Assembly: GCA_041686075.1 (NCBI GenBank)
Contig: JAWLEO010000013.1
Span: forward strand, 12,816-76,815
Direction of reading: 5' to 3'
DNA length: 64,000 nt
From: Bacteroidales bacterium
GTDB taxonomy: Bacteria > Bacteroidota > Bacteroidia > Bacteroidales > VadinHA17
Part shown: positions 21,614-55,298 of the stretch, one piece after another
Layout of the letters: each line of letters opens with the position of its first letter
Numbering within the stretch: the stretch's first letter is position 1
Program-made: the position numbers and the translations under genes
Notes under the pieces: model-generated
What the model saw: the letters and a program-made list of their open reading frames with translations, nothing else
The model's database searches: none
What the model was told of the DNA's origin: nothing

Positions 21614-21830
21614 ATATCCCCTCTTGAAGGGGGTTAGGGGGATATATGCCTGGAATGATGAACAAGGATCCTCCTTTGAACCGAGTAGCACTAGCTTGCT
21701 ATCACAAACTCGCGCTGTCCCGAAGAAGCTAAAGCTTTTCGGCTCCCTGCCTTCCGGCAGGCAGGCTCGAATCGAAGATTCGGGACTCGGTTCCTAATTC
21801 CTAATTCCTAATTAATAATTAATACTTAAT
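21614..21830. repeat. intergenic mosaic repeat block R2
   Basis: Contains the hairpin module cccctcttgaagggggttaggggga (21618-21642) and the 21-nt module tcgaatcgaagattcgggact (21767-21787). A phase-locked heptamer run follows: TTCCTAA x3, TTAATAA, TTAATAC, TTAATCC (21791-21830). It runs into the rlmB stop codon. Confidence 0.9.
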
Positions 21831-22584
21831 CCTTCCCTGCTATCTCATACAGGAGTATTCCTGCAGCAACCGATACATTAAGTGAATCTATGTTGCCAAT
21901 CATAGGCACTGACAGAGCTATATCTGTTATTTCCAATATCTCAGGACTGACACCCCTGTCTTCTGAACCCATTACCAGAACGGCAGGACCGCTTAGATCT
22001 ACAGAGCGGGGTTTATCACCTCCCTTCTCTGAGGCACTGATAATTTTAAGGCCTGAGTTTTTGAGGAAAGAAAGTGTTTTTACCATGCTTTTAACCCTTG
22101 ACACGGGAATCCTGTGAAGGGCACCTGCTGATGTTTTTATGGCCTCGGCATTTATTCTTGCAGCTCCTTTTTCAGGAATAATTATACAATGCACTCCGAA
22201 ACATTCCGCACTGCGGGCAATGGCTCCGAAATTTCGTACATCAGAGATATTGTTCAATGCGAGCAGAAAGGGATCGCTCCCTGATTCATAAATTCCCGGT
22301 AAAAGGGAAAATAAATCATGATACTCTATTTCGGAAAGCCAGGCTATGACTCCCTGGTGATTTTTTTGTGTTATCCTGTTAAGCTTTTCGGCGGGCACCA
22401 CCTGGTAGGGAATTGAGTGCTTTATTAACTTCTCCATAAGTTGGTGGTAAAGCGATCCTTTCAAACCCTTTTTCATTATCAGCCTGTCGATGGTCTTTCC
22501 GGATTCTATGGCTTCAAGCACAGGTCTCAGTCCAAAGATATAGTCGCTTTTGCCCTTCATATCATATCCCTCTAGGATTATCAA
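21826..22584 (-). CDS. rlmB: TrmH/SpoU family 23S rRNA 2-prime-O-methyltransferase
   Basis: About 245 aa with an N-terminal substrate-binding region (GLRPVLEAI) and the SpoU knot motifs (NFGAIARSA, LVMGSEDRGVS, SLNVSVAAGILLYE). The true start is probably the ATG at 22560 (MKGKSDY). Confidence 0.8.
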   Translation of the reverse strand: MIILEGYDMKGKSDYIFGLRPVLEAIESGKTIDRLIMKKGLKGSLYHQLMEKLIKHSIPYQVVPAEKLNRITQKNHQGVIAWLSEIEYHDLFSLLPGIYESGSDPFLLALNNISDVRNFGAIARSAECFGVHCIIIPEKGAARINAEAIKTSAGALHRIPVSRVKSMVKTLSFLKNSGLKIISASEKGGDKPRSVDLSGPAVLVMGSEDRGVSPEILEITDIALSVPMIGNIDSLNVSVAAGILLYEIAGKD

Positions 22585-24184: not shown

Positions 24185-24991
24185 ATGGATAAGGATAGAA
24201 AAGACTTTGATTCTGTTCTTTTTGCCCAGGCTATGGATGAGCACCTGTCAAGCCTGAGGTATGCAAGCATGATACAGAGATCATTAATGCCCGATACTTC
24301 CTTCCTTTCAGGAATACTTAAAGATCATTTCATATTTTATCTTCCGAAAGATTATGTCAGTGGAGATTTTTATTACGCTAACCAGAATGCAGGTTATACA
24401 GTTATCGCCGCTGGCGATTGTACTGGCCACGGTGTGCCAGGGGCATTGTTATCTATCCTGGGGATAAGTTTTTTAAATGAAATATTGCAGGGAAGAGAAA
24501 TTCTCCGCGCCAACAGGATACTTAACAGGATGAGGGAAAAAGTTATGGGGGCTCTTGATCAGCGGGGGCAGGAGTACGAACAAAAAGATAGCATTGATAT
24601 AGCTCTTTGTGTTTATGAACCATTGAGGTCAGTCATTCAGTATGCAGGGGCTAACAGACCACTGGTAAGAGTTAGTGAGGGTGAACTTACAGAAATAAAA
24701 CCTGATAAAATGCCAATTGGTGTAGCACCCCTGGAGGAAGTATCATTTACCAATCACAGGATAGAAGTAAAGCAGGGAGATCGCTTTTATATGTTCTCAG
24801 ATGGATACCCCGACCAGTTCAGTGAAGAGACAAATAAAAAATTTAAAATAAAAAACTTCAGAGAATTAATAGCACATGCATCAGGATGGAGCATGGAAAA
24901 GCAAAAAAGGCATATTGAAAATATTTTTTACGACTGGAAGGGTAGTACTGTGCAGGTGGATGATGTACTTGTTATGGGGTTTGAAATTTAA
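24185..24991 (+). CDS. stand-alone PP2C/SpoIIE-family serine phosphatase domain protein
   Basis: 268 aa with ASMIQRSLMP, SGDFYY, GDCTGHGVPGALLS, FSDGYPDQF and VDDVLVMGF, so all metal-binding Asp motifs are present. No sensor or TM region. Confidence 0.85.
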   Translation: MDKDRKDFDSVLFAQAMDEHLSSLRYASMIQRSLMPDTSFLSGILKDHFIFYLPKDYVSGDFYYANQNAGYTVIAAGDCTGHGVPGALLSILGISFLNEILQGREILRANRILNRMREKVMGALDQRGQEYEQKDSIDIALCVYEPLRSVIQYAGANRPLVRVSEGELTEIKPDKMPIGVAPLEEVSFTNHRIEVKQGDRFYMFSDGYPDQFSEETNKKFKIKNFRELIAHASGWSMEKQKRHIENIFYDWKGSTVQVDDVLVMGFEI

Positions 24992-24996
24992 AAACT

Positions 24997-27285
24997 ATGA
25001 GATTAACAGCTTTCCGAATAGAAAATTTCAGGTCGATTGTAGATACGGGCATGCAAACAATCTCACCTGATAATATAACTTGCCTCATAGGACAAAATGA
25101 GTCGGGAAAGACATCCATACTTGAAGGACTTCAGGTATTTTCATCCGGGGTGATCTCTGAGGATGTCCTAAGAAGTGACCTTTCACTGCCACGCGTTACA
25201 TGTAGCTTTGAGATACCCCAAGACTATCTGGACAACAAGTTACACCCGGTCAATGATGAATTTGATAAGATAGTAAAATCATTGAATAATATAACTCTTG
25301 TGCGTTCCTGGAAGGCTGACCTCAAATCACAAATGGATATCGGCGGAGAACTACTGGAATATATTGAGGCTTTGAATGAAAGCAGAAAAAAAGAGTTAGA
25401 TGATGCCGGCAACAAGATTATGAATTTCTGTTCTGAACTGGACGATGCAAGGAAACGGAAGGAATCTCTCAACCGTGAACTTCATAACATACAGATGAAG
25501 ATTGATGAACATCCTGCAAGAAAGGGCGGACTCAAATTTTTCAGAAAGAAGAATGCAGTAGTAAAAGACGGTAATGAAAAGACTCTTGATGAACTCAATG
25601 TAGCTTATGAAAAAAATCTCACTGAAATAAGTAAAATCAATTCTTTTCTGGAGGATAAGGCTACCCTGATAAAAGTTGTTGAAGACTGGTTAGAAACAGT
25701 GGCTGAGCTTGATAATATAAACAAAAGACTGGATGAAATTTCTGTAAGGTTGGAGGAAAGACACCAGACCATGACATTGCTATCAGGGCCTTCAATAGCT
25801 GAACTGTCCCGTGGGGAGTGGGAAAGAGTGCTTACTGAATATCAATCTGCAGTTAACAGGAAGGAAGAAGTGGAAAAGGAACGTGACCTGAAAATTTTAT
25901 TGTGCGGTTTTATTTTTGAGGGAATTGATGAAGAAAGGGCGAGGCTTAAGATCCAAAAAATTGAAGATGAAAGAAGACTTGAGTATCATCCCAAAGAACT
26001 GGGCGAGTTACTGTCAGCTGATTGTCCCCATTTTGAGATGTTTGAAGATTTCGGGAGCTTACTTCCCAACCGCATTGATATGGAAGACCTGGTGTCTGAT
26101 AACCAGAATGTGGAAGGATATAAGGCAGCAAGGAATTTCTTGACCCTGGCCGACCTCGATTATACATTTTTTCAGCAGCCCTCATCCCGGATACTCAAAC
26201 AAAAAATTGAAAATCTCAATGCAAAGCTAACACTTGATTTCCAGGATTTCTGGCAGCAATATGTGGGAAAACACAACAAAATAAGGATCAATTTCGAACT
26301 TGACCATTACAGTACCAATCACGGTGATAAAGCAGGAAAGCCCTACCTGGAATTCTGGGTTAAGGATGAAGGAGAAAGATTGTATCCAAAGCAGCGAAGC
26401 CGTGGCGTGAGGTGGTTCCTTTCTTTCTACCTGGAATTGATGGCAGCTTCGCGAAGGGATAAAAAGAAGCTAATCCTACTGGTTGATGAGCCTGGAGTGA
26501 GCCTGCATGCGAGGGCACAGGAAGATGTGCTGAAAGTGTTTGAAGATATAAAGGACGACATGCAGGTAATCTATACAACACATTCACCACACCTCGTTGA
26601 TGTAAATAAACTTCACAGGGTACTCGCCGTGCAAAGAGACGACGTGATAAGTCACAAATCAGCAACGGTAATTCTCGATGCCGCACGTTTAAGTGACGCC
26701 TCTCCCGATACTCTTTCACCCTTGCAGAGCATAATGGGCAATCCCGTTGGCAACCAGGAATTCTCGGTTGATAAATACAATATAATTGTTAATAATGTGG
26801 GCACGTTCTACATGATGAATGCTGCTATGAAGTTGACAGGTTATAAGGGCAGAATACACTTCATTCCTTCAACAGATGCCTCTTCCATACCCCTGATGTG
26901 TAATATACTTATGGGTTGGGGAATGAAATTTGCCGTCTTACTTTTCAATAACGAAAATGAGATAGAGATTGCAAGACAGCTGGAGAAACTGGTCTTTACT
27001 AATCAACCCGGTGAAAATGAGAACATAATAATAATGCCCGAACAATTTAAAAATGCCGAAGACCTGCTGTCGACCCTCGATTTTAAAAATCTGATACTAA
27101 AGACCAGGCAGGGCATTACAGTGTCTAATTCTGAGCATGTTAATATTAATGACCTCCCACGTAATTTTATCCTGAGCAAGTTCCTTGGAGATGTGAAGAA
27201 AGGTAAGATCACAAGAACAGATCTTGATGAGGAATCAAAGGAGAATCTCGTCCTCCTGGTGAATATACTCCAGAGATTTAAATAA
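24997..27285 (+). CDS. SMC/OLD-like ABC-type ATPase with a coiled-coil insertion and an uncharacterised C-terminal domain
   Basis: 762 aa. It has Walker A GQNESGKTS (residues 32-40), a long heptad-rich insertion, signature-like QRSRGVRWFLSF, Walker B LILLVDEPGVSLH and H-loop YTTHSPH. It starts 5 nt after the phosphatase stop. Confidence 0.8.
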   Translation: MRLTAFRIENFRSIVDTGMQTISPDNITCLIGQNESGKTSILEGLQVFSSGVISEDVLRSDLSLPRVTCSFEIPQDYLDNKLHPVNDEFDKIVKSLNNITLVRSWKADLKSQMDIGGELLEYIEALNESRKKELDDAGNKIMNFCSELDDARKRKESLNRELHNIQMKIDEHPARKGGLKFFRKKNAVVKDGNEKTLDELNVAYEKNLTEISKINSFLEDKATLIKVVEDWLETVAELDNINKRLDEISVRLEERHQTMTLLSGPSIAELSRGEWERVLTEYQSAVNRKEEVEKERDLKILLCGFIFEGIDEERARLKIQKIEDERRLEYHPKELGELLSADCPHFEMFEDFGSLLPNRIDMEDLVSDNQNVEGYKAARNFLTLADLDYTFFQQPSSRILKQKIENLNAKLTLDFQDFWQQYVGKHNKIRINFELDHYSTNHGDKAGKPYLEFWVKDEGERLYPKQRSRGVRWFLSFYLELMAASRRDKKKLILLVDEPGVSLHARAQEDVLKVFEDIKDDMQVIYTTHSPHLVDVNKLHRVLAVQRDDVISHKSATVILDAARLSDASPDTLSPLQSIMGNPVGNQEFSVDKYNIIVNNVGTFYMMNAAMKLTGYKGRIHFIPSTDASSIPLMCNILMGWGMKFAVLLFNNENEIEIARQLEKLVFTNQPGENENIIIMPEQFKNAEDLLSTLDFKNLILKTRQGITVSNSEHVNINDLPRNFILSKFLGDVKKGKITRTDLDEESKENLVLLVNILQRFK

Positions 27286-27298
27286 GAATTTTGAATTA

Positions 27299-27432
27299 GG
27301 CTAAGGCTAAGGCTAAGGCTTAGACCGCCGGAGACCGGTTAGGCAGGGATCATCGAATCGAAGATTCGGGACTAGCTTCATAATTCATATTTCATAATTC
27401 ATAATTCATAATTAATACTTAATACTTAATAC
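27299..27432. repeat. intergenic mosaic repeat block R3
   Basis: (GGCTAA)x3 plus GGCTTA at 27299-27322, and tcgaatcgaagattcgggact at 27353-27373 (identical to 21767-21787). Eight phase-locked heptamers follow (TTCATAA/TTCATAT x5, TTAATAC x3, 27377-27432), ending exactly at the stop codon of the convergent gene. Confidence 0.92.
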
Positions 27433-28959
27433 TTATTCTGTCCTGTAAATAGGATAAATATCCTTTGGTATATTTTCATATTCAATGGTGGTGAGATCAG
27501 CTGGCCCGAGACCGGGTGCATCAACTTCGAAAATGGCACCGGCAAGTCCGTTCTCATAAAAACCACGCCTGAAATGAACACGGGATTTAAGAGATATAAT
27601 ATCAATATCATCGATGTTCATGCCGAGATCATCAATTATACCCGCACTGGTTACCTGGTGAAGCTCGGGTGTGATAATTACCGTATTGTTATCTCCAAAT
27701 CTGACCAGGGCTACCTTTTCAAACCTGCCATACCTGTCAAAATATTCAAGGGTACCGTTTATTTCAACCGGTTCACCGGCATATTCATCTGCATAACCTC
27801 CTACCATGATATTAACGCTGTCACCGGCTTTTTTGCCTGACTCCTTCATATGCTCAATAAGCTTTTTGTCTGCTATGGTGGCTATGCAGAAATTCTCTGC
27901 CCCCTGCTTTACCAGTTCGGCCAGTATATGGGTGGAGTTGCCGGTTCGGTCACTGTGATCGGCTAAAACCACAGGTGTTTTACCTGCTTTTGCTGCTTCT
28001 ATGCCCAGGCGAACACCTTCGCTTGTCTTTGGCAGTTTCTTGCCTGCAAATTCATGTCGCACCCTCCATATATAATCGTTCATATCATTTGCTATCCGTT
28101 CAGCCAGTTCCTTGTCATCATTCGTTATAACCATTATTGTTGCCCCAACGTCAGGGACATCGGCATAAGCAAAGCCAAATGCGACAGATACATAAACACC
28201 TGGCATACGATCTTCCCATCGCCTGGCCCTTTCCATTATTTCCATTGCGGGAGAGACACCTGTGCCCTGGTATACGCTAGGTGTAATGACGCCCGGTTTC
28301 CTGGTAACCATCACTGGTTTATAATCACCCCTCAGAGTATTTATCATAAGCCTGCCTGCTCTTTCTCCCTGGCTATAGGTGTCGTAATGAGGGTATCTTT
28401 TAATTATTATAACCCCTGATGCTGCATCGGAGAGCTCATGATCTTCGTTTGCGTGCAGGTCAAGGCTTACTATCACAGGTATATCGCCGGCAACCTCTCG
28501 TATCCTTCTCACTATTTCCGCTTCAGGCTTGGGTATTCCACTTACTGCCATGGCACCATGCAGCGAAAGATATATACCATCATAGGGCCCCTTGGTTCTG
28601 ATATCTTCCTGCATGGCACCGGTGTATTTATCAAATGCTTCCCTTGTTATCCAGCTGCCTGAGGAACCTCCGACTGCATCCCTTGGTGATGTTATTCCTT
28701 CAAGTTTTACTCCACCATACTCCTTTATACGGTCAACAAAGCCCCTTATATATGAATCAGCACTCAGTACCTCATCACCTTCAAGAGGAGGTCCGTAATA
28801 CTCAAATTCATCAATACCGGTGGGCCTCGGACAAAAAGTGCATGTCTCATGCGAAAAAGTAGCTATGCCGATTTTGTAATCATCACTTTTTGATTGTTTT
28901 GTGCTGTCACACGATAGCAGAAAAGAAAGTGTAATGAAAATAACAACTAATTTTTTCAT
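27433..28959 (-). CDS. M81 family metallopeptidase (MlrC-like)
   Basis: 508 aa with a signal peptide/lipobox (LLSC) and the MlrC-type N- and C-terminal domain pattern (FSHETCTF, HGAM, SLDLHAN). Confidence 0.8.
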   Translation of the reverse strand: MKKLVVIFITLSFLLSCDSTKQSKSDDYKIGIATFSHETCTFCPRPTGIDEFEYYGPPLEGDEVLSADSYIRGFVDRIKEYGGVKLEGITSPRDAVGGSSGSWITREAFDKYTGAMQEDIRTKGPYDGIYLSLHGAMAVSGIPKPEAEIVRRIREVAGDIPVIVSLDLHANEDHELSDAASGVIIIKRYPHYDTYSQGERAGRLMINTLRGDYKPVMVTRKPGVITPSVYQGTGVSPAMEIMERARRWEDRMPGVYVSVAFGFAYADVPDVGATIMVITNDDKELAERIANDMNDYIWRVRHEFAGKKLPKTSEGVRLGIEAAKAGKTPVVLADHSDRTGNSTHILAELVKQGAENFCIATIADKKLIEHMKESGKKAGDSVNIMVGGYADEYAGEPVEINGTLEYFDRYGRFEKVALVRFGDNNTVIITPELHQVTSAGIIDDLGMNIDDIDIISLKSRVHFRRGFYENGLAGAIFEVDAPGLGPADLTTIEYENIPKDIYPIYRTE

Positions 28960-29043: not shown

Positions 29044-30096
29044 ATGATGAGAAATATAAAAGCTTATGCATTTATCCTGCTGGCTTTGTTGCTTTCAACC
29101 GCCGTGCAGGCACAGGTATACCCGGGTGAAAAGTGGCAAATAGCCAGGGATCCTGATGAATACGGATTTGACCTGGAAAAACTGGAGAAAGCCAGAGATT
29201 ATGCTGATTCAATCAGTACAGCTGCTGTAGTTATAGTGAAATCAGGTGTAATTGTATATGAATGGGGAGAGGTGGATAAGAAATATATGACACATTCAAT
29301 AAGGAAGAGTTTTCTGAGCGCCCTTTACGGAAATTATGTTAAGGAAGGTATTATTGACCTTGATAAAACAGTTTATGAACTGGGGCTGGATGATGAACCT
29401 CCATTGTCAGAGATTGAAAGAACCGCAACACTCAGAGAATGCCTTAAGGCCAGGTCAGGAATATATCATCCTGCATTGTATGAATCTAAACGTATGAAAG
29501 ACCTGAAACCGGAGAGACATACCCAGAAGCCAGGGACTCACTGGTATTATAACAACTGGGATTTTAATGTTTCGGGAACTGCTTTTGAAAAACTAACAGG
29601 AAAAAAAATCTTCCAGGCACTTGAAACAGAAATAGCAAATCCGATAGGTATGGAGGATTTCTCCGCTGAAGATGGTTGGTATGTCACAGGAGAGGAATCA
29701 GTTCATCCGGCCTATCCTTTCATTATCACAGCACATGACATGGCGAGATTTGGCCTGCTTATGTTAAGGAAGGGTAAGTGGAATGATAAACAGCTAATAC
29801 CCGAAGACTGGGTGGAAGAAAGCACACGCTACCACTCAGATGCAAGCCTTTACGGGAGTGATGGTTATGGATATATGTGGTGGGTGGCACGAGATCATAA
29901 TAAATATTCCCACCTGGCCGGGGTAAAATTGCCTGAAGGCACATATTCTGCCAGGGGCGCAGGAGGTCATTACATAGTTATCATTCCGCCGTACGACATG
30001 GTGGTGGTACACAGAGTGGATACCTTTGAAGATAATTCAGTTTCATCAGATGAGTTCGGGAAACTGATGAAGATGATACTTAATGCAAAGGAATAA
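29044..30096 (+). CDS. serine hydrolase, beta-lactamase/transpeptidase-like
   Basis: 350 aa with a signal peptide and an SxxK motif (SIRKS). Confidence 0.8.
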   Translation: MMRNIKAYAFILLALLLSTAVQAQVYPGEKWQIARDPDEYGFDLEKLEKARDYADSISTAAVVIVKSGVIVYEWGEVDKKYMTHSIRKSFLSALYGNYVKEGIIDLDKTVYELGLDDEPPLSEIERTATLRECLKARSGIYHPALYESKRMKDLKPERHTQKPGTHWYYNNWDFNVSGTAFEKLTGKKIFQALETEIANPIGMEDFSAEDGWYVTGEESVHPAYPFIITAHDMARFGLLMLRKGKWNDKQLIPEDWVEESTRYHSDASLYGSDGYGYMWWVARDHNKYSHLAGVKLPEGTYSARGAGGHYIVIIPPYDMVVVHRVDTFEDNSVSSDEFGKLMKMILNAKE

Positions 30097-31313: not shown

Positions 31314-31383
31314 GCCCTCACCTCTATTATCTCACTATAACTTAAACAGTAAATATCTAGGGTGTTAGGCTTGTTCTGAATTT

Positions 31384-31590
31384 CGAATATCGAATAACGA
31401 ATGACGAATGTCGAAGTAGTTTAGGACAAGACAAGTGGCTGCATGATTTCAGATTTAATTCTCATTGTTGCAGAGGTTTTATTGCTTAGATTGGTTCGCA
31501 TATCGCATATCGCATATCGCCTCTCATTTTCCCCTCTCCATTCCTTGCTACCACCTACCAGTTAATAAATCATAATTCATCATTAATACT
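31384..31590. repeat. intergenic mosaic repeat block R4
   Basis: Heptamers CGAATNN x5 (31384-31418) and TCGCATA x3 plus variants (31496-31523). Next comes a module ending in attccttgctaccacctaccagttaataaatcataatt (31540-31577), then TTAATAC directly before the stop of the convergent gene. Confidence 0.92.
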
Positions 31591-32805
31591 TCATCTCATC
31601 TCTTCCCTCACCTCATCCAGGTCAATGTAACCTTCTGTGGTGTCAAGCCAGATTTTACCTTTTTCTTCAACAAATCCAAACATTCCGTATTTAATGTCGA
31701 GGATGTCTTCATCAACCCTTTTCTGCATTCTTACGTTATACAGTATAGAATATTCTTCAACCCTATCTCCTCCTTCTTTGTAAAAAATTAGATCAACCTG
31801 TGCCCATTCCTTATCGGGACTGACATCCATAAGTATAATACTCATATGCTCATCATGCCCGAGATTTTTGTATTCATCCAGCCGGGTCTTATCTACAAGC
31901 AATAGTTTCTTAAACCTATCGGTATCAAAATATATCTTTCCGGCATCAGGTTCTTCATCCTCGTATACATTAATTATATCTTCGTTTTTATCAATGCGTC
32001 TTTTTGTATATAAATTGGGTTTGTATATAAATGATAAACCTGATATACAGGTATCATCCCATTCGGAACCCCGGTAAACATTTACTATTTCAATCTTTAC
32101 AAAGAAACTGAACTGAGGTTCCATATCACATGTGGGACACCATTCCTTCCTTTGAAGTATCTCGTCGGCAAATTCTTTTTTAAATGCCTTCTTCAGGGAA
32201 TCCCTGGCGGCAATGGCATTATCCCTGTCGAAAGGCATCCTTAATTTCTGGAAACCCATCTTGTCTTTCAGTTCAATGTTTACGGGACCTCCAATTTGCT
32301 TCAATCTGTATCGTGATGCAATTTCTGTATCGTCTCCTTCAAGGAAGAAACCTGCATATAAGCTAAGCTTTACATGGTGAGGGCGACTATTCATTATATA
32401 CAATCTCTCTGATTTCTGGTAGCCATTGCTTATTGCCAATGTGTCAGGAAAAATTTCCCCTGCTTTTACTATTATATATTCTCCCTTACCATGGCCTTTC
32501 ACACCTTCCACCCAGGCAGTGGCAGGATCATTGTCAAAGAGATTGTGTCCTCCGTATCTTCCAAGTCCCTCATAAGGATTCACGGCTTCAAGCTCTGAGC
32601 TGACTATAAAATGATGTGTAACACCATTTATCCTGATTGCCCTGAAATACATTTCTTCCCATTTCTCTTCTTTTTCCTGCACTACGATCTTCCTTTGAAG
32701 GTATTCGACATGCTTAAGATTGACGCCTGCGGCCTTAATTTTCGCGAACGAAGGAGAATAAAGGGGAAAAATAATAACGCATAGCAGTATTTTTATCCAA
32801 TTCAT
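31591..32805 (-). CDS. secreted hypothetical protein with a discoidin/NADase-type glycan-binding-like region
   Basis: The ORF extends to 32865. The ATG at 32805 gives a signal-peptide start (MNWIKILLCVIIFPLYSPSFA). The motif LFDNDPATAWVEGVKGHGKGEYII resembles glycan-binding jelly-roll domains. The C-terminal half is unassigned. Confidence 0.5.
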   Translation of the reverse strand: MNWIKILLCVIIFPLYSPSFAKIKAAGVNLKHVEYLQRKIVVQEKEEKWEEMYFRAIRINGVTHHFIVSSELEAVNPYEGLGRYGGHNLFDNDPATAWVEGVKGHGKGEYIIVKAGEIFPDTLAISNGYQKSERLYIMNSRPHHVKLSLYAGFFLEGDDTEIASRYRLKQIGGPVNIELKDKMGFQKLRMPFDRDNAIAARDSLKKAFKKEFADEILQRKEWCPTCDMEPQFSFFVKIEIVNVYRGSEWDDTCISGLSFIYKPNLYTKRRIDKNEDIINVYEDEEPDAGKIYFDTDRFKKLLLVDKTRLDEYKNLGHDEHMSIILMDVSPDKEWAQVDLIFYKEGGDRVEEYSILYNVRMQKRVDEDILDIKYGMFGFVEEKGKIWLDTTEGYIDLDEVREEMR

Positions 32806-33039
32806 CTTATTACTTTTTATTAAACGCTTTCTCATATGCTGATAAATGTAAACAAATCGGGTCATAATACCACATTTTGATAAATTACAAAAATAAATTT
32901 TGTTTATATAAGAAAAAAGTGTATATTATTTACATATGTTAATATTTCGTTGAGAGGTGGGATGCTAAGGGGAAAATTAAAAAAGATTATATTATCAATA
33001 AAAACCAGTTGATGAACTGGAACGAATATATAACCAAAT

Positions 33040-34449
33040 ATGGAGGATAAAAAAATGAAATTCAGAAAACAAAAGTTGATCAGGATAGTGATCCCATTAG
33101 TGATAATAATGTTAATAATGGGTTCGTGTAAAAGTAACCAGGCAGAAAAGGAAGCACAAAAATTGCTGGAAAAACAGAGAGCTACTCTTGAAGAGGGCGA
33201 AGAACTGATTGAAGAAGCCTACCTTGAAATACAGGAGTTAAGAGATTCCCTCGATGCTGCTCAGGAAAATCTTGAAGCCAGGCGAGAGCAGGTTGAAGAA
33301 GATATTGAAGCATTGGAATCTGATCGTGAAGAGTATGCAGAAACCCTCAGCGAAGAGAAGGAAGAGGAGCTTGCTCAACAGAAGGCTGATTTGCAGTCAA
33401 GGCTCAAAGAAATAGAAGATAGTATTTCCTTTGTACAGGCTGAACGAGATTCTGTTCAGAAACAAATGGATACTTTAGATATAAAAGAACAGCAGCTGGA
33501 AGAGCAGAAGAAAGTTTCCACGGAGAAACTTATTACAGGTATCGACGACATTGATAACCGCCTGGATGAGATTGAAAAACAGAGACTCGTAAAACTTAAT
33601 GAGACTGAGATCAATGAACAGAAAATAGAGCTGGCCAGGAAAAAAATTGAACTTCTGGAAGATGAGAAAAACATTTATCAGAGAGAAAAGAACGAGATAT
33701 TGAAAAAGAATGGTGATGAGGCTGAACTGGAGAAGTATGACCTTAAAATAAGTAAGATTAACAGCTATCTTAATGAAGAGCAGAATAAGATAGAAAATGC
33801 TGAAAGCAATATAAAATCCCTGCAGTCATGGATAAATGATGCCGATGCTCTGAAAGAAAGGCTCAGGAACATGATGTCCTCAGAGTACGATAGGGATGAA
33901 ACTATCGATGAATTCACAAAGCAAGAAATAAATAGGCTGGAAAGGGAACGTCAAGCCCTGAATAAGGAACTGGAGGACCTTAATAATTTAAAAACCAGCC
34001 TGTCCGAAAAGAGAGCTTCCCTGAATGAAAGGCTGGTATCCCTTGAAGAGGAGGCTGAACTGGTTAAAAGCAGGGAGTTGTCCGAAATACTTGATGAAAG
34101 AGCCGGTATTGAAGAACAGGAGGTCCAGCTGGCAGAACGTGAAAAAAAAATGGCTAAGGAAAAGACAGCCCCCGAGACTCTAGAAGAAGTCACGGAGTTG
34201 GATCCGGGATCAGATGAGCTTAAGTCGATTGAGGAATCTATTGAACTTAAGAGGAAGCAAATCGATATACTCCGTTCAGAAATTGCAGAAGATGAAGCCC
34301 AGCTGGCAAAAGAGATGGCTGATATTGAAGCACAACGGTCGAAAAATGTCAGGAATGTAACCTGGACTGTAATAATACTTGTAATAGTAGGCATTGTAAT
34401 AATTGGTATTCTCTACGCCCTTGGCAGGCGTAGCAGGAAGCAAAGCTAA
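33040..34449 (+). CDS. long acidic coiled-coil protein with an N-terminal lipobox and a C-terminal TM anchor
   Basis: 469 aa. It has a signal peptide ending in LIMGSC, about 400 residues of E/K/L-rich heptads, then VTWTVIILVIVGIVIIGILYALG followed by RRSRKQS. Confidence 0.7.
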   Translation: MEDKKMKFRKQKLIRIVIPLVIIMLIMGSCKSNQAEKEAQKLLEKQRATLEEGEELIEEAYLEIQELRDSLDAAQENLEARREQVEEDIEALESDREEYAETLSEEKEEELAQQKADLQSRLKEIEDSISFVQAERDSVQKQMDTLDIKEQQLEEQKKVSTEKLITGIDDIDNRLDEIEKQRLVKLNETEINEQKIELARKKIELLEDEKNIYQREKNEILKKNGDEAELEKYDLKISKINSYLNEEQNKIENAESNIKSLQSWINDADALKERLRNMMSSEYDRDETIDEFTKQEINRLERERQALNKELEDLNNLKTSLSEKRASLNERLVSLEEEAELVKSRELSEILDERAGIEEQEVQLAEREKKMAKEKTAPETLEEVTELDPGSDELKSIEESIELKRKQIDILRSEIAEDEAQLAKEMADIEAQRSKNVRNVTWTVIILVIVGIVIIGILYALGRRSRKQS

Positions 34450-39940: not shown

Positions 39941-40064
39941 CCCCTGACACTCACTTTGTTCGGTCAGGGGTATTCCTACTCTGAAGAGGAGGAGAAATGT
40001 ATGACTTTGAATATCAATCATTTCCCCTCCTTTTTAAAGGAGGGGTGTCCCGAGTACTCGGGAC
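39941..40064. repeat. cluster of GC-rich hairpins downstream of hsp20
   Basis: cccctgac...gtcagggg (39941-39970), cccctcc-tttttaaa-ggagggg (40024-40045), and a perfect 18-nt palindrome gtcccgagtactcgggac (40047-40064). Confidence 0.85.
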
Positions 40065-40124
40065 GGGGTGGTTTTGGTACTTATGAGACAGCCCTATTGA
40101 TTTTTATAGAAAGGAGGACTTAAA

Positions 40125-41639: not shown

Positions 41640-41645
41640 TTAAGA

Positions 41646-41713
41646 CCGCTGGCGCGGATCTCCAGCCCTGTCCGCCGTAGCTCTGCGGAGGCGGGATCCG
41701 TGCCAGGCTACGG
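41646..41713. repeat. GC-rich intergenic repeat modules
   Basis: ccgctggcgcggatct (41646-41661) and cgtgccaggctacgg (41699-41713) recur in the same order at 44903-44917/44955-44969 and 45011-45025. Confidence 0.8.
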
Positions 41714-44859: not shown

Positions 44860-44867
44860 TAGAGACA

Positions 44868-45025
44868 GGCTAAGGCTAAGGCTAAGGCTAAGGCTCCGTC
44901 TTCGCTGGCGCGGATCTGCTCCCCCTTTGAAGGGGGTTGGGGGAATGTTATCTTCGCTGGCGCGGATCTGCTATTGTACGCCATAGCCTGAAAGGCGAAG
45001 GTGGAAGACTCGTGCCACGCTGCGG
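44868..45025. repeat. intergenic mosaic repeat block R6
   Basis: (GGCTAA)x4 starts 9 nt after the stop (44868-44891). The 22-nt direct repeat tcttcgctggcgcggatctgct (44899-44920 and 44951-44972) flanks the hairpin module ccccctttgaagggggttggggga (44921-44944). cgtgccacgctgcgg is at 45011-45025. Confidence 0.9.
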
Positions 45026-45163
45026 CAGATACGGACTATGGCAAATATTGCAGTGAGCTTTTACTATCTGTATGGCTTGAGGGATTATAATAAGGCACTC
45101 AGGTATTGTAAGTGGATTTTCATCGGGTATTTTCGTAAATTTAAGTTCACAAATGCGGGATTT

Positions 45164-45829
45164 ATGTATTTCTTATTTCTGTTCCTGTCGCTGGCCCTTG
45201 GCTACCTCTCCGGAAGCATCAGTTTTGCTGTTCTGATTTCAAAGTGGGTCAAAGGCATTGATATAAGGGCTGTCGGGAATAAAAACCCGGGAACCGCCAA
45301 TGTTGCCAGAGAGGTTGGAATAGGGTGGGCGGCCCTGGTTCTGATAGGAGACCTGGCTAAGGGTGTGCTGCCGCTGGTGTTGGCCAGCTTATTCCTCTTC
45401 CCTGATGATCATTACACAGATTATTTTGCCCTCTTCCTGACAGGTATGTCTGTTATTACGGGGCATTGCTGACCTCTTTACTTCCGGTTCAGGGGTGGGA
45501 GGGGACTCGCCACCTCTATCGCTATCTACATGTTCTTTATCCCTGTGGAATTTTTCGTTACACTGGTAATTGCATTAATCGTGGTGCAGGTATTTTTCAG
45601 GAAAAAAAAGTACTCCCTCGGCATGCTTACTCCTATGGTCTTTGTTCCACTCGCACCTATACTGTTAATCCTGAGTAATCTATTTTTCGATACCCGACTT
45701 TTCAATACGCTCAAAGTGGGGGGCTATCCATGGTATGTACTTGTGGGTGTCATTACCATGTCAGCCTATATTTTTTCCATCAACAGGAGGGTGGTGGTGG
45801 CAAGGGTCACCAGGGACGAAGCAATCTGA
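45164..45829 (+). pseudogene. plsY: glycerol-3-phosphate acyltransferase PlsY interrupted by an in-frame TGA
   Basis: The ORFs at 45038..45472 and 45530..45829 are in the same frame. Read through TGA 45470-45472, the product is ...ITGHC*PLYFRFRGGRGLATSIAIYMFF..., i.e. the conserved PlsY GHxxP...F(K/R)GG(K/R)G motif with the stop at the aromatic position. The likely start is ATG 45164. Confidence 0.8.
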
Positions 45830-46472: not shown

Positions 46473-46623
46473 CAGGGGGCAGGGAGCGTCAGGGACTCCG
46501 TTTCACTCCGTCTCGCATTTCATCTTTCGCATCTCGCCTCTAGTCTTACCCTCTGCATTCCTTGCTACCACCTACCAGTTAATAAATCATAATTAATAAT
46601 TAATACTTCCCTGCTCCCTGTCC
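46472..46623. repeat. intergenic mosaic repeat block R5
   Basis: Heptamer-phased TCGCNTN units (46513-46547), then a 38-nt core at 46557-46594 identical to 31540-31577, then TTAATAA/TTAATAC/CTCCCTG heptamers up to the TonB receptor stop. The ends are imperfect inverted CAGGGAG-type repeats. Confidence 0.9.
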
Positions 46624-49293: not shown

Positions 49294-49384
49294 GATCTCA
49301 GGATTTATTAAAACTCGGCACTAAGACAATGAAAATTTAAGAAATTTTGAGATATAATCAAATACCGGCGCTAGAAAATCACTT

Positions 49385-49419
49385 CTTAAATCTGAAATCT
49401 TAAATCTGAAATCTTAAAT
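49385..49419. repeat. heptamer tandem array CTTAAAT/CTGAAAT x5
   Basis: cttaaatctgaaatcttaaatctgaaatcttaaat. This is the same heptamer family (a rotation of AATCTTA) as 61074-61112. Confidence 0.92.
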
Positions 49420-49615
49420 CAAACCCTTAAATATATCTTCCCCATATCTTATTTTTGATATTTAGCTGACAATATTTATCTTAGTGAGGCTGTTTAACCA
49501 AAAAATCGCTGCTATATGGAAACACCCGAAGAAATCAAAAAAGATTCCTCGATGCACGTAGCTTCATAAGACCGGGCCTGGATGAGTGAGTAAGGCCAAA
49601 AGCCGCATCGAAGGG

Positions 49616-49657
49616 CTGCTCCCTGCTCCCTGCTCCCTGCTCCCTGCCCCTTGCCCC
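49616..49657. repeat. heptamer tandem array CTGCTCC x3, CTGCCCC, TTGCCCC, TTGCCTA
   Basis: Six in-phase heptamers, followed by the hairpins acccgcggagcgggt and ccggggtttcaccccgg-type. Confidence 0.92.
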
Positions 49658-49715
49658 TTGCCTAACCCGCGGAGCGGGTAAATAATAATAGCCGGGGTTT
49701 CACCCCCGGATAAAA

Positions 49716-54513: not shown

Positions 54514-54915
54514 AGGGAATGTAAGATTACTCACCCTGCTAACGCAGGGTTCGTGATCTTTATTGGGGTTAATTCAAAAGACAAAAAAGTCTCCTTTCAG
54601 TCGGGTTTTATTGTCAGTTAGTCGCTTATGAAAATAAATTTTCAACGCTCCTTCCTTCCAATAAAAAAACCTGACATTTCTGTCAGGGCTTTTTTGGTCT
54701 TTTGTCGGGGTAGTAAGATTACTCGCTCTTCGCTATGCTCATCGCTCGTGATCATTTTGGAGGTTAATTCAAAAGACAAAAAAGTCTCCTTTCAGTCGGG
54801 TTTTATTGTCAGTTAGTCGCTTATGAAAATAAATTTTCAACGCTCCTTCCTTCCAATAAAAAAACCTGACATTTCTGTCAGGGCTTTTTTGGTCTTTTGT
54901 CGGGGTAGTAAGATT
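54514..54915. repeat. about 2.1 tandem units of 195 bp, each ending in a copy of the tRNA-Pro 3-prime terminus
   Basis: 54569-54720 is identical in register to 54764-54915 (offset 195). Each unit carries the terminator hairpin and the 16-nt tcggggtagtaagatt. A third, degenerate junction (gggaatgtaagattactc) is at 54515-54532. Confidence 0.9.
54858..54890 (-). terminator. bidirectional intrinsic terminator downstream of tRNA-Pro
   Basis: 7-bp stem cctgaca/tgtcagg with a 4-nt loop, flanked by A7 and T6. A duplicate lies at 54663-54695. Confidence 0.75.
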
Positions 54916-54974
54916 CGAACTTACGACCCCCTGCTCCCAAAGCAGGTGCGCTAACCGGACTGCGCTATACCCCG
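54900..54974 (-). tRNA. tRNA-Pro (anticodon UGG)
   Basis: The reverse complement folds as a cloverleaf: acceptor CGGGGTA/TACCCCG, D stem GCGC/GCGC, anticodon stem CCTGC/GCAGG with loop TTTGGGA, T arm GTAAG-TTCGAAT-CTTAC. It is 75 nt and CCA is not encoded. Confidence 0.92.
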
Positions 54975-55071
54975 CACTGCCCACCGAAGCTTCAGCGAAG
55001 GTGGGTTTCATCTGCTTTAGCCTAAGTGTAGGCGGAAAACTCATTTTCTTCTGCAAATCTAATAACTCTAT
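54954..55071. repeat. 118-bp direct repeat, copy 1
   Basis: Covers tRNA-Pro nt 1-21, the 47-nt spacer and the last 17 codons of the GIY-YIG gene. It matches 55401-55518 at 112 of 118 positions (counted by hand). Confidence 0.9.
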
Positions 55072-55285
55072 CCCTTTTCTTAAAGCTTTTTAGTAACTGC
55101 TCAACCTTATAGGCTTCTCCTCTTGTCTCAAAATTCTTCCAGTAAATCAACTTCCATGGCTTTCCTGATTTTGTGGAGTTGACCCTTCCTGCATTGTGTC
55201 TCTCCAATCTTGACTCCAGTTTCTCAGTCTGACCAATATAATACTTTCTATTCTTCTCCGATTCAAGTATGTAAACGAAATACAT
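55022..55285 (-). CDS. small GIY-YIG nuclease superfamily protein
   Basis: 87 aa with MYFVYILESEKNRKYYIGQT...RLERHN...WKLIYWKNF...EAYKVEQLLK. Its stop is 47 nt upstream of the tRNA-Pro 5-prime end on the same strand. Confidence 0.85.
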   Translation of the reverse strand: MYFVYILESEKNRKYYIGQTEKLESRLERHNAGRVNSTKSGKPWKLIYWKNFETRGEAYKVEQLLKSFKKRDRVIRFAEENEFSAYT

Positions 55286-55298
55286 TTTCTTAAATCTT

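Follow-up and report, generated by a model that had tools for sequence, protein, structure and literature searches.

Heptamer arrays that meet stop codons, and a palindromic element nested within them, in the intergenic DNA of a Bacteroidales genome

Tandem arrays of 7-nt units lie between genes of an uncultured Bacteroidales lineage, often running into stop codons, and a palindromic repeat of ~114 nt, here named element E, is nested within such arrays, mostly in register with them. We describe both in a 64,000-nt stretch of DNA (“the window”) and in related genomes and metagenomes. The explanation we favor, at a probability of roughly 0.55, combines slippage-prone microsatellites with a REP/REPIN-like mobile hairpin element, E, that lands in them. 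Both E and the arrays are probably selfish or neutral DNA, and neither has the appearance of a dedicated terminator or RNA gene. Since heptamer arrays near stop codons, heptamers in Bacteroidetes, and tagged REPs have all been published, novelty is limited to the nesting of E in heptamer arrays, which appears to be new and amounts to a local variation on intergenic repeats already known from bacteria.

Many bacterial genomes contain heptamer arrays. Here, a graded series of relatives carries different arrays in the same gaps; array turnover is therefore measurable. A palindromic, REP-like element positioned in register inside microsatellites joins two repeat classes that are usually handled apart, and it provides a concrete target-site hypothesis, i.e., TT^C on the G-poor strand. 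The arrays also matter for annotation: they define or shift stop codons, break short-read assemblies, and can yield false ORF calls in MAGs.

Heptamer arrays are intergenic and lie close to stop codons

In the intergenic DNA of the window, matches peak at lags of 7, 14, 21, and 28 nt, with z = 7.6 for lag 7 relative to shuffled sequences; coding DNA shows a lag-3 peak only. TRF and a period scan together identify nine period-7 runs, all intergenic. Within the window, heptamers are thus in excess over composition and confined to non-coding DNA. Arrays with at least three head-to-tail 7-nt copies occur at many loci, as in the LSSR heptamers of other bacteria, and further arrays are present in the comparison loci L001–L033. 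Seven arrays lie ≤20 nt from a stop codon and none lies ≤20 nt from a start codon; none of the eight divergent gaps contains an array. The arrays and the two genes discussed most below are as follows.

21791–21832, plus strand: heptamer array of six units; in gene sense TAAGTAT TAATTAT TAATTAG GAATTAG x2 GAACCGA
21826–22560, minus strand: rlmB-like SpoU-family rRNA methyltransferase gene (Pfam PF00588, PF08032)
27298–27320, plus strand: AGGCTA hexamer array (x4), 12 nt past the stop codon of an AAA_15 ATPase gene
27377–27432, plus strand: heptamer array of eight units; in gene sense from the mlrC-like stop codon, TAAGTAT x3, TAATTAT, GAATTAT-type x4
27433–28959, minus strand: mlrC-like M81 metallopeptidase gene (Pfam PF07364, PF07171)
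31378–31415, plus strand: GAATATC-type heptamer array, 64 nt past the stop codon of a plus-strand metallophosphoesterase gene
31496–31592, plus strand: composite family B (TCGCATA heptamers, CTTGCTACCACCTACCAG, TTAATAA/ATCATAA/TTAATAC heptamers), ending at the 31591 stop codon
46513–46623, plus strand: second copy of family B plus CCCTGCT-type heptamers, reaching the stop codon of a TonB-dependent receptor gene (46624)
49384–49420 and 49616–49662, plus strand: two arrays in one long gap, TCTTAAA/TCTGAAA and CTGCTCC/TGCCCCT (TRF/period scan)
61072–61113, plus strand: array of exactly six heptamers, TAAATCT/TCAATCT (period scan)

A preliminary description of this DNA had reported arrays that run in 7-nt phase into the stop codons of an rlmB-like and an mlrC-like gene. 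They do so, and Pfam domains back both gene names (SpoU_methylase and SpoU_sub_bind; M81/MlrC_C). The rlmB-side array consists of TTCCTAA x3, TTAATAA, TTAATAC, and TTAATCC as reported, starting 3 nt past a shared 21-mer (see below); its end is at 21832, not at 21830. Its last unit contains the rlmB-like stop codon (21826–21828), which in gene sense is the first triplet of the array. The mlrC-side array (27377–27432) was described correctly, with TTCATAA/TTCATAT x5 followed by TTAATAC x3 and, immediately after, the mlrC-like stop codon (27433–27435). TTAATAC units were also said to sit just before the stop codons at 31591 and 46624. The first of these is 1 nt away; the second is at 17 nt, the spacer being itself made of CCCTGCT-type heptamers. 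The family B copies at 31496 and 46513–46609 align over 97 nt with 87% identity (repeat D4).

At 61072–61113, the array begins with the TAA stop codon of a plus-strand sulfatase gene and ends in TCA, the complement of the TGA stop codon of a convergent GFO_IDH gene, such that the 36-nt convergent gap (61075–61110) is array throughout. More generally, the first triplet of an array is often the stop codon; at least five genes in the window have a stop codon touched by an array, as do genes in relatives. Read in the sense of the gene whose stop codon they touch, arrays are rich in purines and poor in C. The motif AAGTATTAATKATKA is found 0–17 nt past the stop codons of four different genes, compared with 0.08 matches expected. 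The AGGCTA hexamer array recurs at 44867–44895, 7 nt past another stop codon, and in L003, L005, and L033. A 30-nt module at 44899–44972 is flanked by a perfect 22-nt duplication. Beside the window, 19 kb of the same genome contains no array and no copy of E; array density is therefore patchy.

The 21-mer is one hairpin of a longer palindromic repeat

The preliminary description had identified a 21-nt module, TCGAATCGAAGATTCGGGACT, at the rlmB-like and mlrC-like loci. Exact copies are indeed present at 21767–21787 and 27353–27373 (two in the window, 0 expected from 100 shuffles), with no third match in the window even at ≤3 mismatches. At both loci, the 21-mer and the phase-locked array form a true composite, and the loci align without gaps over 79 nt with 82% identity (repeat family D5). 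However, the shared unit is not the 21-nt module itself but a decayed copy of E. The 21-mer is hairpin P2 of this element, most of which is retained at the rlmB-like locus (21694–21794), whereas the mlrC-like locus keeps a 28-nt core only.

21694–21794, plus strand: W1, a decayed copy of E, identified by alignment and as a full-length match to covariance model R1 (27.6 bits, E = 5e-5)
21767–21787, plus strand: 21-mer, hairpin P2 (CTCGAATC-GAA-GATTCGGG), an exact repeat with an ssDNA fold of −5.1 kcal/mol
27346–27373, plus strand: W2, an E core remnant (GGGATCA plus the 21-mer), a 27–28-nt match to all E copies
21617–21643, minus strand: small hairpin module TCCCCTCTTGAAGGGGGTTAGGGGGAT (repeat family D17), with a second copy at 44920–44946
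55306–55402, both strands: variant P1-GGATCC-P2 double hairpin (TCCCGAAAAACA..TGTTTTTCGAGGATCCTCGCAAAATCA..TGATTTTGCGGGAC), R1 scores of 20.8 and 19.5 bits

E consists of a C-rich tail, two inverted hairpins (P1 and P2), and a third hairpin (P3). P1 and P2 flank TTCGAGGATCCTCGAA, a perfect palindrome at the center of what is a REP-type inverted pair. P1 has a stem of ~11 bp with a bulge, opening with C-G pairs, and a loop of 3–5 nt, followed by ATCC. It is preceded by CGTC, and P2, on the opposite strand, by AGTC; CCGTCCCGAA, which includes the CGTC tag at P1, is invariant in nine full-length E copies. The 21-mer is invariant across 14 aligned sequences. Pairing in P1 and P3 is kept through two-sided changes (AGC/GCT vs. 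ACC/GGT vs. ACAAA/TTTGT). As single-stranded DNA, E folds strongly on either strand (z = −3.5 and −4.0). Its ends read GCTCGC... and ...CGGTT, and terminal inverted repeats are not seen at them.

W1 keeps the 5′ tail, P1 (CCGAAGAAGCT..AGCTTTTCGG), P2, and the CGGTT(C) end; P3 is deleted, and P1 and P2 are separated by an additional, inserted hairpin (CTGCCTTCCGGCAG). W2 has lost P1, the tail, and P3, and scores only 14 bits with R1 (model positions 59–75). The likeness of the two loci would exist because each holds a remnant of E without P3, whose GGTT(C) end lies against units of the TTCNTAA/TTAATAC type. The double-hairpin variant at 55306–55402 adjoins a small GIY-YIG gene and a tRNA-Pro. 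We considered this GIY-YIG gene as a general partner of E and rejected it, as no homologue is found near any other E copy.

E is dispersed and nested in arrays

Twelve further distinct E loci were found in Bacteroidales MAGs and metagenomes. The 21-mer is present in five loci of GTDB genomes and 14 metagenome loci (13 distinct), at most of which it is the core of the ~114-nt E sequence. Full-length copies score 88–139 bits with model R1, compared to 27.6 bits for W1. Viral contigs of IMG/VR contain no exact match to the 21-mer, and the 114-nt E has no match in phage and plasmid collections. The modules of E recombine: L005 carries P3 with a module D, and P1-P2 is missing. In L002, a solo E end is associated with an array, and hairpins are nested inside the loops of others at 41643–41712 and in L022.

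E and the arrays differ in their positions relative to genes. The composite had been proposed to be a 3′-end element, and a stop codon bias does hold for the arrays. It does not hold for E, which is also found in divergent and tandem gaps, including upstream of genes in divergent gaps of L002, L003, and L004. Where E is near a stop codon, its GGTTC end points toward the stop codon in 7/8 cases.

When E is excised in silico, the flanking sequences resume the 7/8-nt register (≥75% match) in 7 of 11 copies, as opposed to 1% of randomly placed excisions (P about 3e-12). In 10 of 11 copies, E has the same orientation as the array's G-poor strand. The same 7/8-nt unit is found on both sides of E, as an exact 8-mer in L009 and with 7/8 matches in L012 and L015; a repeated flanking unit of this kind fits duplication and insertion into a pre-existing array alike. 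A search for pairs of filled and empty sites gave no clean example at close range. The ortholog of the W2 gap in L020 contains a full E, with a perfectly conserved 21–24-nt core even though identity in the flanking genes is only ~81%. The orthologous regions of L031 and L033 contain no E.

Arrays turn over between relatives

The arrays are not an assembly artifact, a possibility that the preliminary description had raised: the same arrays are found in two NCBI MAG assemblies and two Logan read-set assemblies. In these four near-identical assemblies of one population, the arrays are identical except for one base, with no variation in unit number. The window differs from GCA_046482335.1 at one position in 21.5 kb, position 27390, which is within the mlrC-side array.

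Unit-number variation between related strains had been suggested as a check, and among relatives the number does vary, with orthologous gaps (95–81% identity) holding different units or copy numbers. GTATTAA is present three times in the window and once in each of L030 and L031. A TTATGAA-type unit occurs five times in the window, at least three times in L030 (where the contig ends in the array), and three times in L031, with one of the units being TTATTAA. The GAGGCGA-type array of the family B locus at 31496 has four units in the window, against 25 in L031. L033 and L020 have wholly different units at the same gap. L008, from the same population as the window, differs in unit number, and leaves the window sequence inside the TTCATAA array for another neighboring gene, giving an mlrC-to-GH20 junction. 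A chimera produced by k-mer assembly across a repeat may account for this junction; Logan contigs end inside arrays, including the one at 61072–61113.

The product of the rlmB-like gene also differs between relatives in its C-terminus. The C-terminal tails in relatives (GKD*, GSRER*, or a 25-amino-acid tail) extend 2, 5, and 25 residues past the conserved GILLYE(I/M)(A/V)G and are encoded by array-like sequence. Comparison of C-termini places the mlrC-like stop codon at the same position in relatives.

Some unit strings are identical or nearly so between loci and genomes. The 25-mer TCATAATTAATAATTAATACTTCCC is common to the window and L002, and the 15-mer AAGTATTAATKATKA described above follows several unrelated stop codons. 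Independent local slippage does not account for these shared strings, which hint at composite copying or selection.

A likely origin for arrays and E

On the reading we favor, heptamer arrays, as well as the octamer and hexamer arrays, would originate and change through replication slippage. They would persist only where a 7-nt register is harmless, i.e., outside coding DNA and mostly outside divergent gaps, which bear promoters. Survival at harmless sites only would thus cause arrays to accumulate past stop codons, reaching the stop codon or supplying it. E, whose layout is that of a REP dimer or REPIN with the addition of a third hairpin, would be a small non-autonomous mobile element. It may insert into arrays between TT and C of the G-poor strand, leaving the register undisturbed, perhaps through a single-strand route like that of HUH/tyrosine transposases. 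Inserted copies would later decay by deletion and nested insertion. No transposase or RAYT gene was found among the 19 window proteins (Pfam), among the Pfam labels of the context loci, or beside E copies, such that the mobility of E is inferred from its distribution alone. Slippage as the engine of turnover, transposition of E, and the lack of a dedicated cellular function are accordingly the interpretive parts of this reading; the anatomy of E, the repeat families, the in-register nesting, the turnover, and the stop codon contact were observed directly. Weighing against this reading are the unit strings shared between loci and genomes, the consistent polarity described below, the perfectly conserved core of E in W2 and L020, the absence of a clean pair of filled and empty sites, and the array-free 19 kb beside the window. 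If it is true, these loci are a well-documented new example and establish no new principle.

Alternative explanations

It is possible, though we consider it doubtful, that transcribed arrays and E have a function in the 3′ UTR or as insulators, e.g., as an mRNA 3′-end stabilizer, a spacer separating stop codon from hairpin, or a directional barrier. Such a function would parallel roles proposed for enterobacterial REPs. It would fit the repeated contact with stop codons in the window and in relatives, and the consistent polarity of both components (the purine-rich, C-poor sense strand of arrays and the GGTTC end of E facing stop codons) could reflect function at the RNA level. At the rlmB-like locus, E and the array sit between the stop codon and a terminator-like hairpin and are therefore probably within the transcript. 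The antisense strand of the arrays is G-less with evenly spaced C, resembling a Rho-loading site; arrays could therefore block convergent read-through, and the convergent gap at 61075–61110 is filled by array. Moreover, published Xanthomonas and Nostoc heptamers have the same stop-proximal, sense-strand bias, and most are transcribed (PMC4692102), while REPs are mostly downstream of genes (PMC3733652). However, the type, sequence, and copy number of units at orthologous gaps change completely among close relatives, E is missing from the L031 and L033 regions, and E is also located upstream of genes. In addition, sense-strand purine loading is genome-wide here, as judged from skews, so array polarity may be mutational.

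A more specific role in termination, suggested in the preliminary description, is not supported by the sequence. Intrinsic terminators require a G+C-rich hairpin with a direct T/U run; no T-run follows the E hairpins, and no structure is predicted in the arrays. A scan for intrinsic terminators found none at the 21-mer hairpin or within arrays, and the region has 10 terminator-like sites compared with 9.4 in shuffles. A separate terminator-like hairpin with a T-rich tail lies farther downstream of E on the minus strand, within the module at 21617–21643 (21632–21618).

We regard as unlikely a second, more far-reaching possibility, that E is an active, non-autonomous single-strand element (of HUH/tyrosine-transposase type or otherwise site-specific) that targets TT^C of pyrimidine-rich units. 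Arrays would then be landing pads, even seeded by target duplications, and the polar composite of array and E would act on transcripts at the 3′ ends of genes, e.g., as a directional barrier to convergent transcription. To our knowledge, no microsatellite-targeting repeat system has been described in Bacteroidales, and this would be a new type of repeat system there.

Still less likely, in our view, is that arrays are protein-binding sites, contingency (phase-variation) loci that tune neighboring genes, or recombination hot spots at which genes are shuffled. We know of no candidate array-binding protein. Differences in unit number among relatives, the recurrence of one 15-mer after several stop codons, and the departure of L008 from the window exactly within the TTCATAA array into a different neighbor gene are all in line with this idea, and a rearrangement role has been suggested for long Gramella heptamer arrays (PMC4679880). 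Arguing against it, arrays are located past stop codons, whereas phase variation acts on promoters or on the 5′ ends of reading frames; unit number is constant among the four near-identical assemblies; and the L008 junction is possibly a chimera.

It is very improbable that E is a structured non-coding RNA gene or a cis-regulatory RNA with the 21-mer as a conserved helix. In favor, its ~114 nt are conserved and include three helices plus a closing stem, folds beat those of shuffles (z down to −3.9), and there are a few compensatory changes. Nevertheless, Rfam 15 gave no match to E or the arrays, whether in the window at gathering thresholds, in a 6-kb region at E ≤ 5, or in seven E-bearing loci at E ≤ 1. 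Folding of the E consensus is about as good on one strand as on the other (−37.4 vs. −35.1 kcal/mol), with a covariation term of about 0, and the strand favored by wobble pairs varies from helix to helix; covariation is not dense enough to identify the functional strand. Copies, some of them fragmented or rearranged into mosaics, are found in every orientation to genes, with no conserved promoter or terminator, and the presence of several decaying copies per genome is typical of repeats, not of RNA genes.

Lastly, although AT-rich intergenic DNA can yield short spurious repeats and short-read assemblers can collapse or mis-join repeats (Logan contigs do end in arrays), chance resemblance or artifact can be virtually discounted given a 21-mer with 0 copies expected, the lag-7 z of 7.6, identical arrays in four independent assemblies, and E in many other metagenomes.

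Comparison with known repeat systems

Heptamers of heterocystous cyanobacteria, known as STRRs, were reportedly described by Mazel et al. in 1990. The comparison with STRRs made in the preliminary description is apt: in both cases, dispersed intergenic tandem heptamers belong to a few unit families that are common to different loci and related genomes. In the lineage described here, unit numbers vary between the genomes. The phylum and the unit sequences differ, and we rejected an assignment to cyanobacterial STRRs proper, since the host is a member of the Bacteroidales and the units are not STRR1-3. Signs of a Bacteroidales host are the GWxTD and CarboxypepD_reg-TonB genes in the window, a Bacteroidales small SRP RNA in L015, and the NCBI names of relatives. 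Tight contact with stop codons and nesting of palindromic elements are not known features of STRRs. Nostoc SDRs, for which PMC3116915 cites Elhai et al. 2008, are reportedly hairpin modules of 20–30 nt apparently inserted in other repeats; they may resemble the 30-nt module at 44899–44972 and the loop-nested hairpins, with a different phylum and different sequences. PMC4692102 also refers to heptamers in Calothrix.

In most genomes, heptamers form the largest class of long SSRs, according to Mrazek 2007 as summarized in PMC4679880. The LSSRs of Xanthomonas (GGGAATC) and Nostoc (GGGGA(T/C)T) cluster ≤50 bp from stop codons or overlap them, in sense orientation, and avoid the gaps between divergent genes (Rehm et al. 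2015, PMC4692102). Like the arrays described here, they are intergenic 7-nt tandems, rare in coding DNA and between divergent genes, stop-proximal, with the purine-rich strand as the sense strand and with a length that is not conserved among related strains. By contrast, the units here are mostly AT-rich (TAAGTAT, GAATTAT, TAAATCT), making a G-quadruplex impossible, many unit types share one register and are interleaved with palindromic modules, and the host is an uncultured Bacteroidales lineage.

An equivalent in Bacteroidota, which the preliminary description had not been aware of, has been published for both components (heptamer arrays in five Bacteroidetes, PMC4679880; CGTC REPs, PMC3733652). 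TAACTGA and other heptamer direct repeats are found in Beggiatoaceae, Cyanobacteria, and the five Bacteroidetes (MacGregor 2015, PMC4679880). As here, a Bacteroidetes intergenic region can have several heptamer arrays, the units give stop codons in three frames, an array can be missing from the same gap in close relatives, and contigs break inside arrays. Those repeats differ in being mostly just upstream of start codons, with a proposed role in translation, whereas here arrays meet stop codons. No TAACTGA unit occurs here, and no palindromic element was described with theirs.

The comparison of the composite with mosaic BIMEs has also proved apt, the 21-mer being one hairpin of a modular palindromic repeat. 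Like REPs, BIMEs, and REPINs (Bertels & Rainey 2011, PMC3116915), E consists of short imperfect palindromes in the 20–40-nt range, paired in inverted orientation and able to form one larger hairpin, that are dispersed in intergenic DNA, mostly past genes, and form mosaics with other motifs. CGTC-tagged REPs occur in Bacteroidetes without a dedicated transposase, with a stem of 8–9 bp that begins with two A-T pairs, a loop of 4–5 nt, and a CCA tail (Di Nocera et al. 2013, PMC3733652). E shares the unpaired CGTC tag, for P1 only; its stems open with C-G pairs, it lacks the CCA tail, and its P1 stem is longer. Unlike in GTAG-tagged REPs and REPINs, no GTAG lies beside any E hairpin, and no RAYT gene is seen. 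E further differs from REPs by its C-rich tail, its third hairpin, and its embedding in microsatellite arrays.

The BrickBuilt MITE of Porphyromonas gingivalis has a 23-nt minisatellite between inverted-repeat ends (Klein et al. 2015, PMC4596501). By its description, it too is a multi-copy intergenic composite in Bacteroidales, with leader and tail modules and a tandem repeat of variable number. The arrangement is reversed: in BrickBuilt, the repeat is inside the element, whereas here the palindromic element is inside 7/8-nt arrays.

Heptamer arrays at stop codons

The 21-mer TCGAATCGAAGATTCGGGACT occurs exactly twice in the window, with no third copy at up to three mismatches and none expected by chance. 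A strict 7-nt register starts 3 bases past each copy and reaches the stop codon of a minus-strand gene, encoding an SpoU/RlmB-type methyltransferase at locus 1 and an M81/MlrC-type peptidase at locus 2. Over a gap-free alignment of 79 nt, the two loci are 82% identical.

Repeat composites in the window
21767-21787 and 27353-27373: exact copies of the 21-mer
21791-21832: array 1, TTCCTAA x3, TTAATAA, TTAATAC, TTAATCC; stop codon 21826-21828 within the last unit
27377-27432: array 2, TTCATAA/TTCATAT x5, TTAATAC x3; stop codon 27433-27435 directly adjoining
31496-31592 and 46513-46609: second composite, 87% identical over 97 nt, ending in TTAATAC-type units at a stop

The preliminary description had reported the repeated 21-mer, the phase-locked heptamers, and TTAATAC units ahead of the stops at 31591 (1 nt away) and 46624 (17 nt away, the gap being made of CCCTGCT-type heptamers). 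All are present, and its sole descriptive error was to end array 1 at 21830.

The window has nine period-7 runs, each of them in intergenic DNA, and few runs of any other period. Intergenic DNA (6.6 kb) has match peaks at lags 7, 14, 21, and 28, with a lag-7 z-score of 7.6 against shuffles; coding DNA has a lag-3 signal only. No structure is predicted in the arrays. Seven arrays come within 20 nt of a stop codon; no array is as close as that to a start, and the eight divergent gaps contain none. This 3′-end bias is drawn from small numbers, and in part from non-independent orthologous gaps, in 64 kb plus ~19 kb of the source genome outside the window, the latter without any array. Read in gene sense, the first triplet of the first unit is the stop codon of the gene touched: TAAGTAT... 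starts at the stops of both the rlmB-like and mlrC-like genes, TAAATCT... starts at a sulfatase stop, and six units exactly make up the convergent sulfatase/GFO_IDH gap with its two flanking stop codons. The 15-mer AAGTATTAATKATKA lies 0–17 nt past the stops of four different genes (0.08 matches expected), and two plus-strand stops are followed by AGGCTA hexamer arrays.

Throughout the window, GC skew and AT skew track gene orientation strongly, giving purine-rich sense strands, and post-stop arrays have the same polarity; their purine richness may be a simple consequence of this skew. At 45038-45829, plsY (glycerol-3-phosphate acyltransferase) seems split by a frameshift or sequencing error: the first ORF covers profile positions 1–78 of 164, stopping after ...ITGHC, with the remainder in another frame.

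The 21-mer as the core of a larger element

Scans with the 21-mer found five loci in GTDB species genomes and 14 (13 distinct) in JGI metagenomes. The repeated module is a real exact repeat but, in most of these loci, only the core of one common ~114-nt sequence, which we call E: GCTCGCTCCCACCAGCCACAATCACC-GTCCCGAAAAAGC-nnn-GCTTTTTCGAGGATCC-TCGAATCGAAGATTCGGGACT-CGCGAGCTCGCCCCGAAnnnnTCGGGGCTCGGTTC. E consists of a C-rich tail, a hairpin P1 preceded by CGTC, an inverted hairpin P2 (the 21-mer), and a third hairpin, P3. The P1/P2 junction is a perfect 16-nt palindrome, TTCGAGGATCCTCGAA, and the outer arms of P1 and P2 (GTCCCGAA/TTCGGGAC) can also pair, as they can in REP dimers, or REPINs. Several copies possibly come from the same genomes, and host range past "Bacteroidales" is by record titles. 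Phage and plasmid collections gave no match to E, nor IMG/VR to the 21-mer.

E and related sequences in the window
21694-21794: W1 (locus 1), full-length, decayed; 27.6 bits, E-value 5e-5 with the covariance model of E; P1, an extra inserted hairpin, P2, and the CGGTTC end, with P3 missing
27346-27373: W2 (locus 2), remnant; GGGATCA and the 21-mer only
55306-55402: variant with a P1-GGATCC-P2 frame
2095-2169: weak E-like stretch

Full copies fold well whether taken as single-stranded DNA or as RNA, and do so for either strand (z −3.0 to −4.0), and pairing of P1 and P3 survives two-sided changes in the diverged copies L001, L022, and L021. The consensus folds equally well on both strands with an almost nil covariation term, Rfam has no matching family, and we regard an RNA gene as one of the less likely readings.

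Position of E relative to arrays and genes

Nearly every E locus has 7- or 8-nt arrays on both sides, with units including CCATTATT, TTCATAA/TTAATAA, TCATCTC, CTTTTAT, TCCTTTT, and TTCAACAA. When E was excised in silico (GCTCGC to CGGTT), register agreement across the junction was at least 75% in 7 of 11 copies and at least 57% in 10, with 1% of random excisions reaching 75% (P about 3e-12). Because this control drew on all positions, not just arrays, it speaks more firmly for E lying inside arrays than for exact preservation of phase. The junction is invariably ...TT/C..., and 10 of the 11 copies are co-oriented with the G-poor array strand. On the Bacteroidales chromosome OY764960.1 (L001, 3467-6531), an E core sits amid ~3 kb almost devoid of convincing genes and dense with differing heptamer arrays, one an ACCGATC array of about 35 units.

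Copies of E occur in convergent (W2, L020, L005), tandem (W1, L021, L018, L012), and divergent gaps (L002, L003, L004); E as such is not a 3′-end element. Of the composite first described, only the arrays show a bias toward stops. In seven of the eight cases where a stop is no more than ~100 nt from E, the GGTTC end with the array points toward that stop. The suggested terminator role finds no counterpart in the 21-mer hairpin or the arrays, neither of which is terminator-like; a separate terminator-like hairpin with a T-rich tail lies at 21632-21618, downstream of E on the gene strand at locus 1.

Remodeling among relatives

GCA_046482335.1 and GCA_964562315.1 hardly differ from the window: over 21.5 kb the only change is at 27390 (T vs A), which falls within an array. 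Orthologous loci were found via MlrC homologues at 95, 91, and 85% identity (L030, L031, L033) and on a metagenome contig, L020, whose common genes are ~74–81% identical at the DNA level. Every orthologous gap compared is remodeled.

Orthologous gaps compared
After mlrC, window: GTATTAA x3, TTATGAA-type x5, E core
After mlrC, L030 (95%): GTATTAA x1, at least three TTATGAA; contig ends inside the array
After mlrC, L031 (91%): GTATTAA x1, TTATGAA x2, TTATTAA x1; of E just GAACCGAGTC; gap 41 nt
After mlrC, L033 (85%): TCGGCAG and GACTGAA/GACTGTG x10
After mlrC, L020 (~81% nt): GAGATGA units and full-length E amid other modules
After rlmB, window: W1 and TTAGGAA/TTATTAA units
After rlmB, L031: GAGAGGC x10, without E
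After rlmB, L033: several other arrays
After the NADase-domain gene: GAGGCGA-type, x4 in the window, x25 in L031; gene absent in L033

A search of the L031 and L033 regions with the covariance model found no E. The check for unit-number variation that the preliminary description had proposed comes out positive between species and negative inside the sampled population. A phase-variation or protein-binding role is among the less likely readings. The MlrC stop falls at the same residue in all relatives compared, and RlmB tails past the conserved GILLYE(I/M)(A/V)G comprise 2, 5, or 25 residues coded by array-like GGGAGCA sequence; thus, arrays both abut and supply stop codons.

Gene content varies in array-rich gaps (window 29044-30096 and 31591-34449 vs L020 and L033): a beta-lactamase-family gene is absent from L020, and an NADase-translocation-domain gene and a 469-aa gene are absent from both. 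Beside mlrC (24185-27285), genes for a SpoIIE/PP2C-type phosphatase and a 762-aa AAA_15/SMC_N ATPase, a domain pairing that resembles some defence-type ATPase modules, are kept together in L020, L031, and L033. Contig L008 (4041-4097; read set SRR31818008) follows the window at 99.95% identity as far as the middle of the TTCATAA array (window 27393), past which a GH20 gene takes the place of the AAA_15 ATPase gene. The window arrangement is present in that read set too (L023), and the junction could reflect either a true rearrangement or a chimeric assembly.

Mosaic modules

As suspected from the start, modules occur in varied combinations in the style of BIMEs. L005 has P3 and a further hairpin module, D, without P1-P2; L002 has a solo E end with TTCATAA TTAATAA TTAATAC at a stop codon; and hairpins are nested inside the loops of others (window 41643-41712, L022). 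A 30-nt hairpin module, present also at 21617-21643, is bracketed at 44899-44972 by the two copies of a perfect 22-nt direct repeat (TCTTCGCTGGCGCGGATCTGCT), an arrangement that looks like a recent small insertion with target duplication.

More small hairpin modules (41643-41712, 40021-40075) are found in gaps or right behind stop codons. The loop of module D (GCTGGCGCGGATCTCCAG...ATCCGTGCCAGGC) holds a second hairpin, and a GTCCCGAGTACTCGGGAC hairpin adjoins a CCCCTCC...GGAGGGG hairpin identical over 26 nt to L002 4371-4396. A 195-nt tandem duplication, 98% identical (54551-54915 and 54899-54974), ends within tRNA-Pro(tgg), exactly where the GCA_046482335.1 contig spanning most of the window stops. 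A 118-nt direct repeat (54954-55518, 96%), holding the tRNA-Pro 5′ part and the 3′ end of a GIY-YIG gene, brackets that gene (87 aa, 55022-55285, minus strand) and the P1-P2-type double hairpin at 55306-55402. The region resembles a ~447-nt cassette with a partial duplication at the tRNA. None of the other E copies has a GIY-YIG homologue nearby.

Possible mechanisms

We favor, at roughly 55%, a two-part account inferred from these patterns. The arrays would be slippage-prone microsatellites, tolerated only where a 7-nt register is harmless, which would explain their absence from coding DNA and promoter-bearing gaps and their extension to the stop codon. E would be a REP/REPIN-like, non-autonomous element that lands inside arrays and decays afterwards. 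No transposase turned up in a Pfam scan of 19 window proteins, among the Pfam labels of genes called at the context loci, or beside E copies. Three observations fit poorly: identical unit strings are common to different loci and genomes, the composite has strict polarity, and no base of the P2 core differs between W2 and L020. They leave room for a transcript-level function, as a stabiliser, spacer, or directional barrier to convergent transcription, which we consider unlikely. Sense-strand purine richness is possibly just skew. An artefact is also among the less likely explanations, and the arrays, being alike in four assemblies, are not the assembly artefacts the preliminary description had allowed for.

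Comparison with known systems

Heptamers are the commonest class of long SSRs in bacteria (Mrazek 2007, as summarised in PMC4679880), and five Bacteroidetes have heptamer arrays, some of them mixed within a single gap (PMC4679880). GGGAATC repeats of Xanthomonas and GGGGA(T/C)T repeats of Nostoc avoid coding DNA and divergent gaps and form sense-strand clusters within 50 bp of, or overlapping, stop codons (PMC4692102), the same avoidance and clustering as in the window. CGTC-tagged REPs occur in Bacteroidetes without a dedicated transposase (PMC3733652); E carries this tag, at P1 only, but breaks their stem rules and lacks their tail, so we do not file it in these families. BrickBuilt of P. 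gingivalis (PMC4596501) is also a Bacteroidales composite of modules and a tandem repeat, with a different architecture. We came across no published account of the E family, or of any palindromic element lying in register within 7/8-nt arrays. Heptamer arrays near stops and tagged REPs are known, and the E family and its in-register nesting appear to be new.
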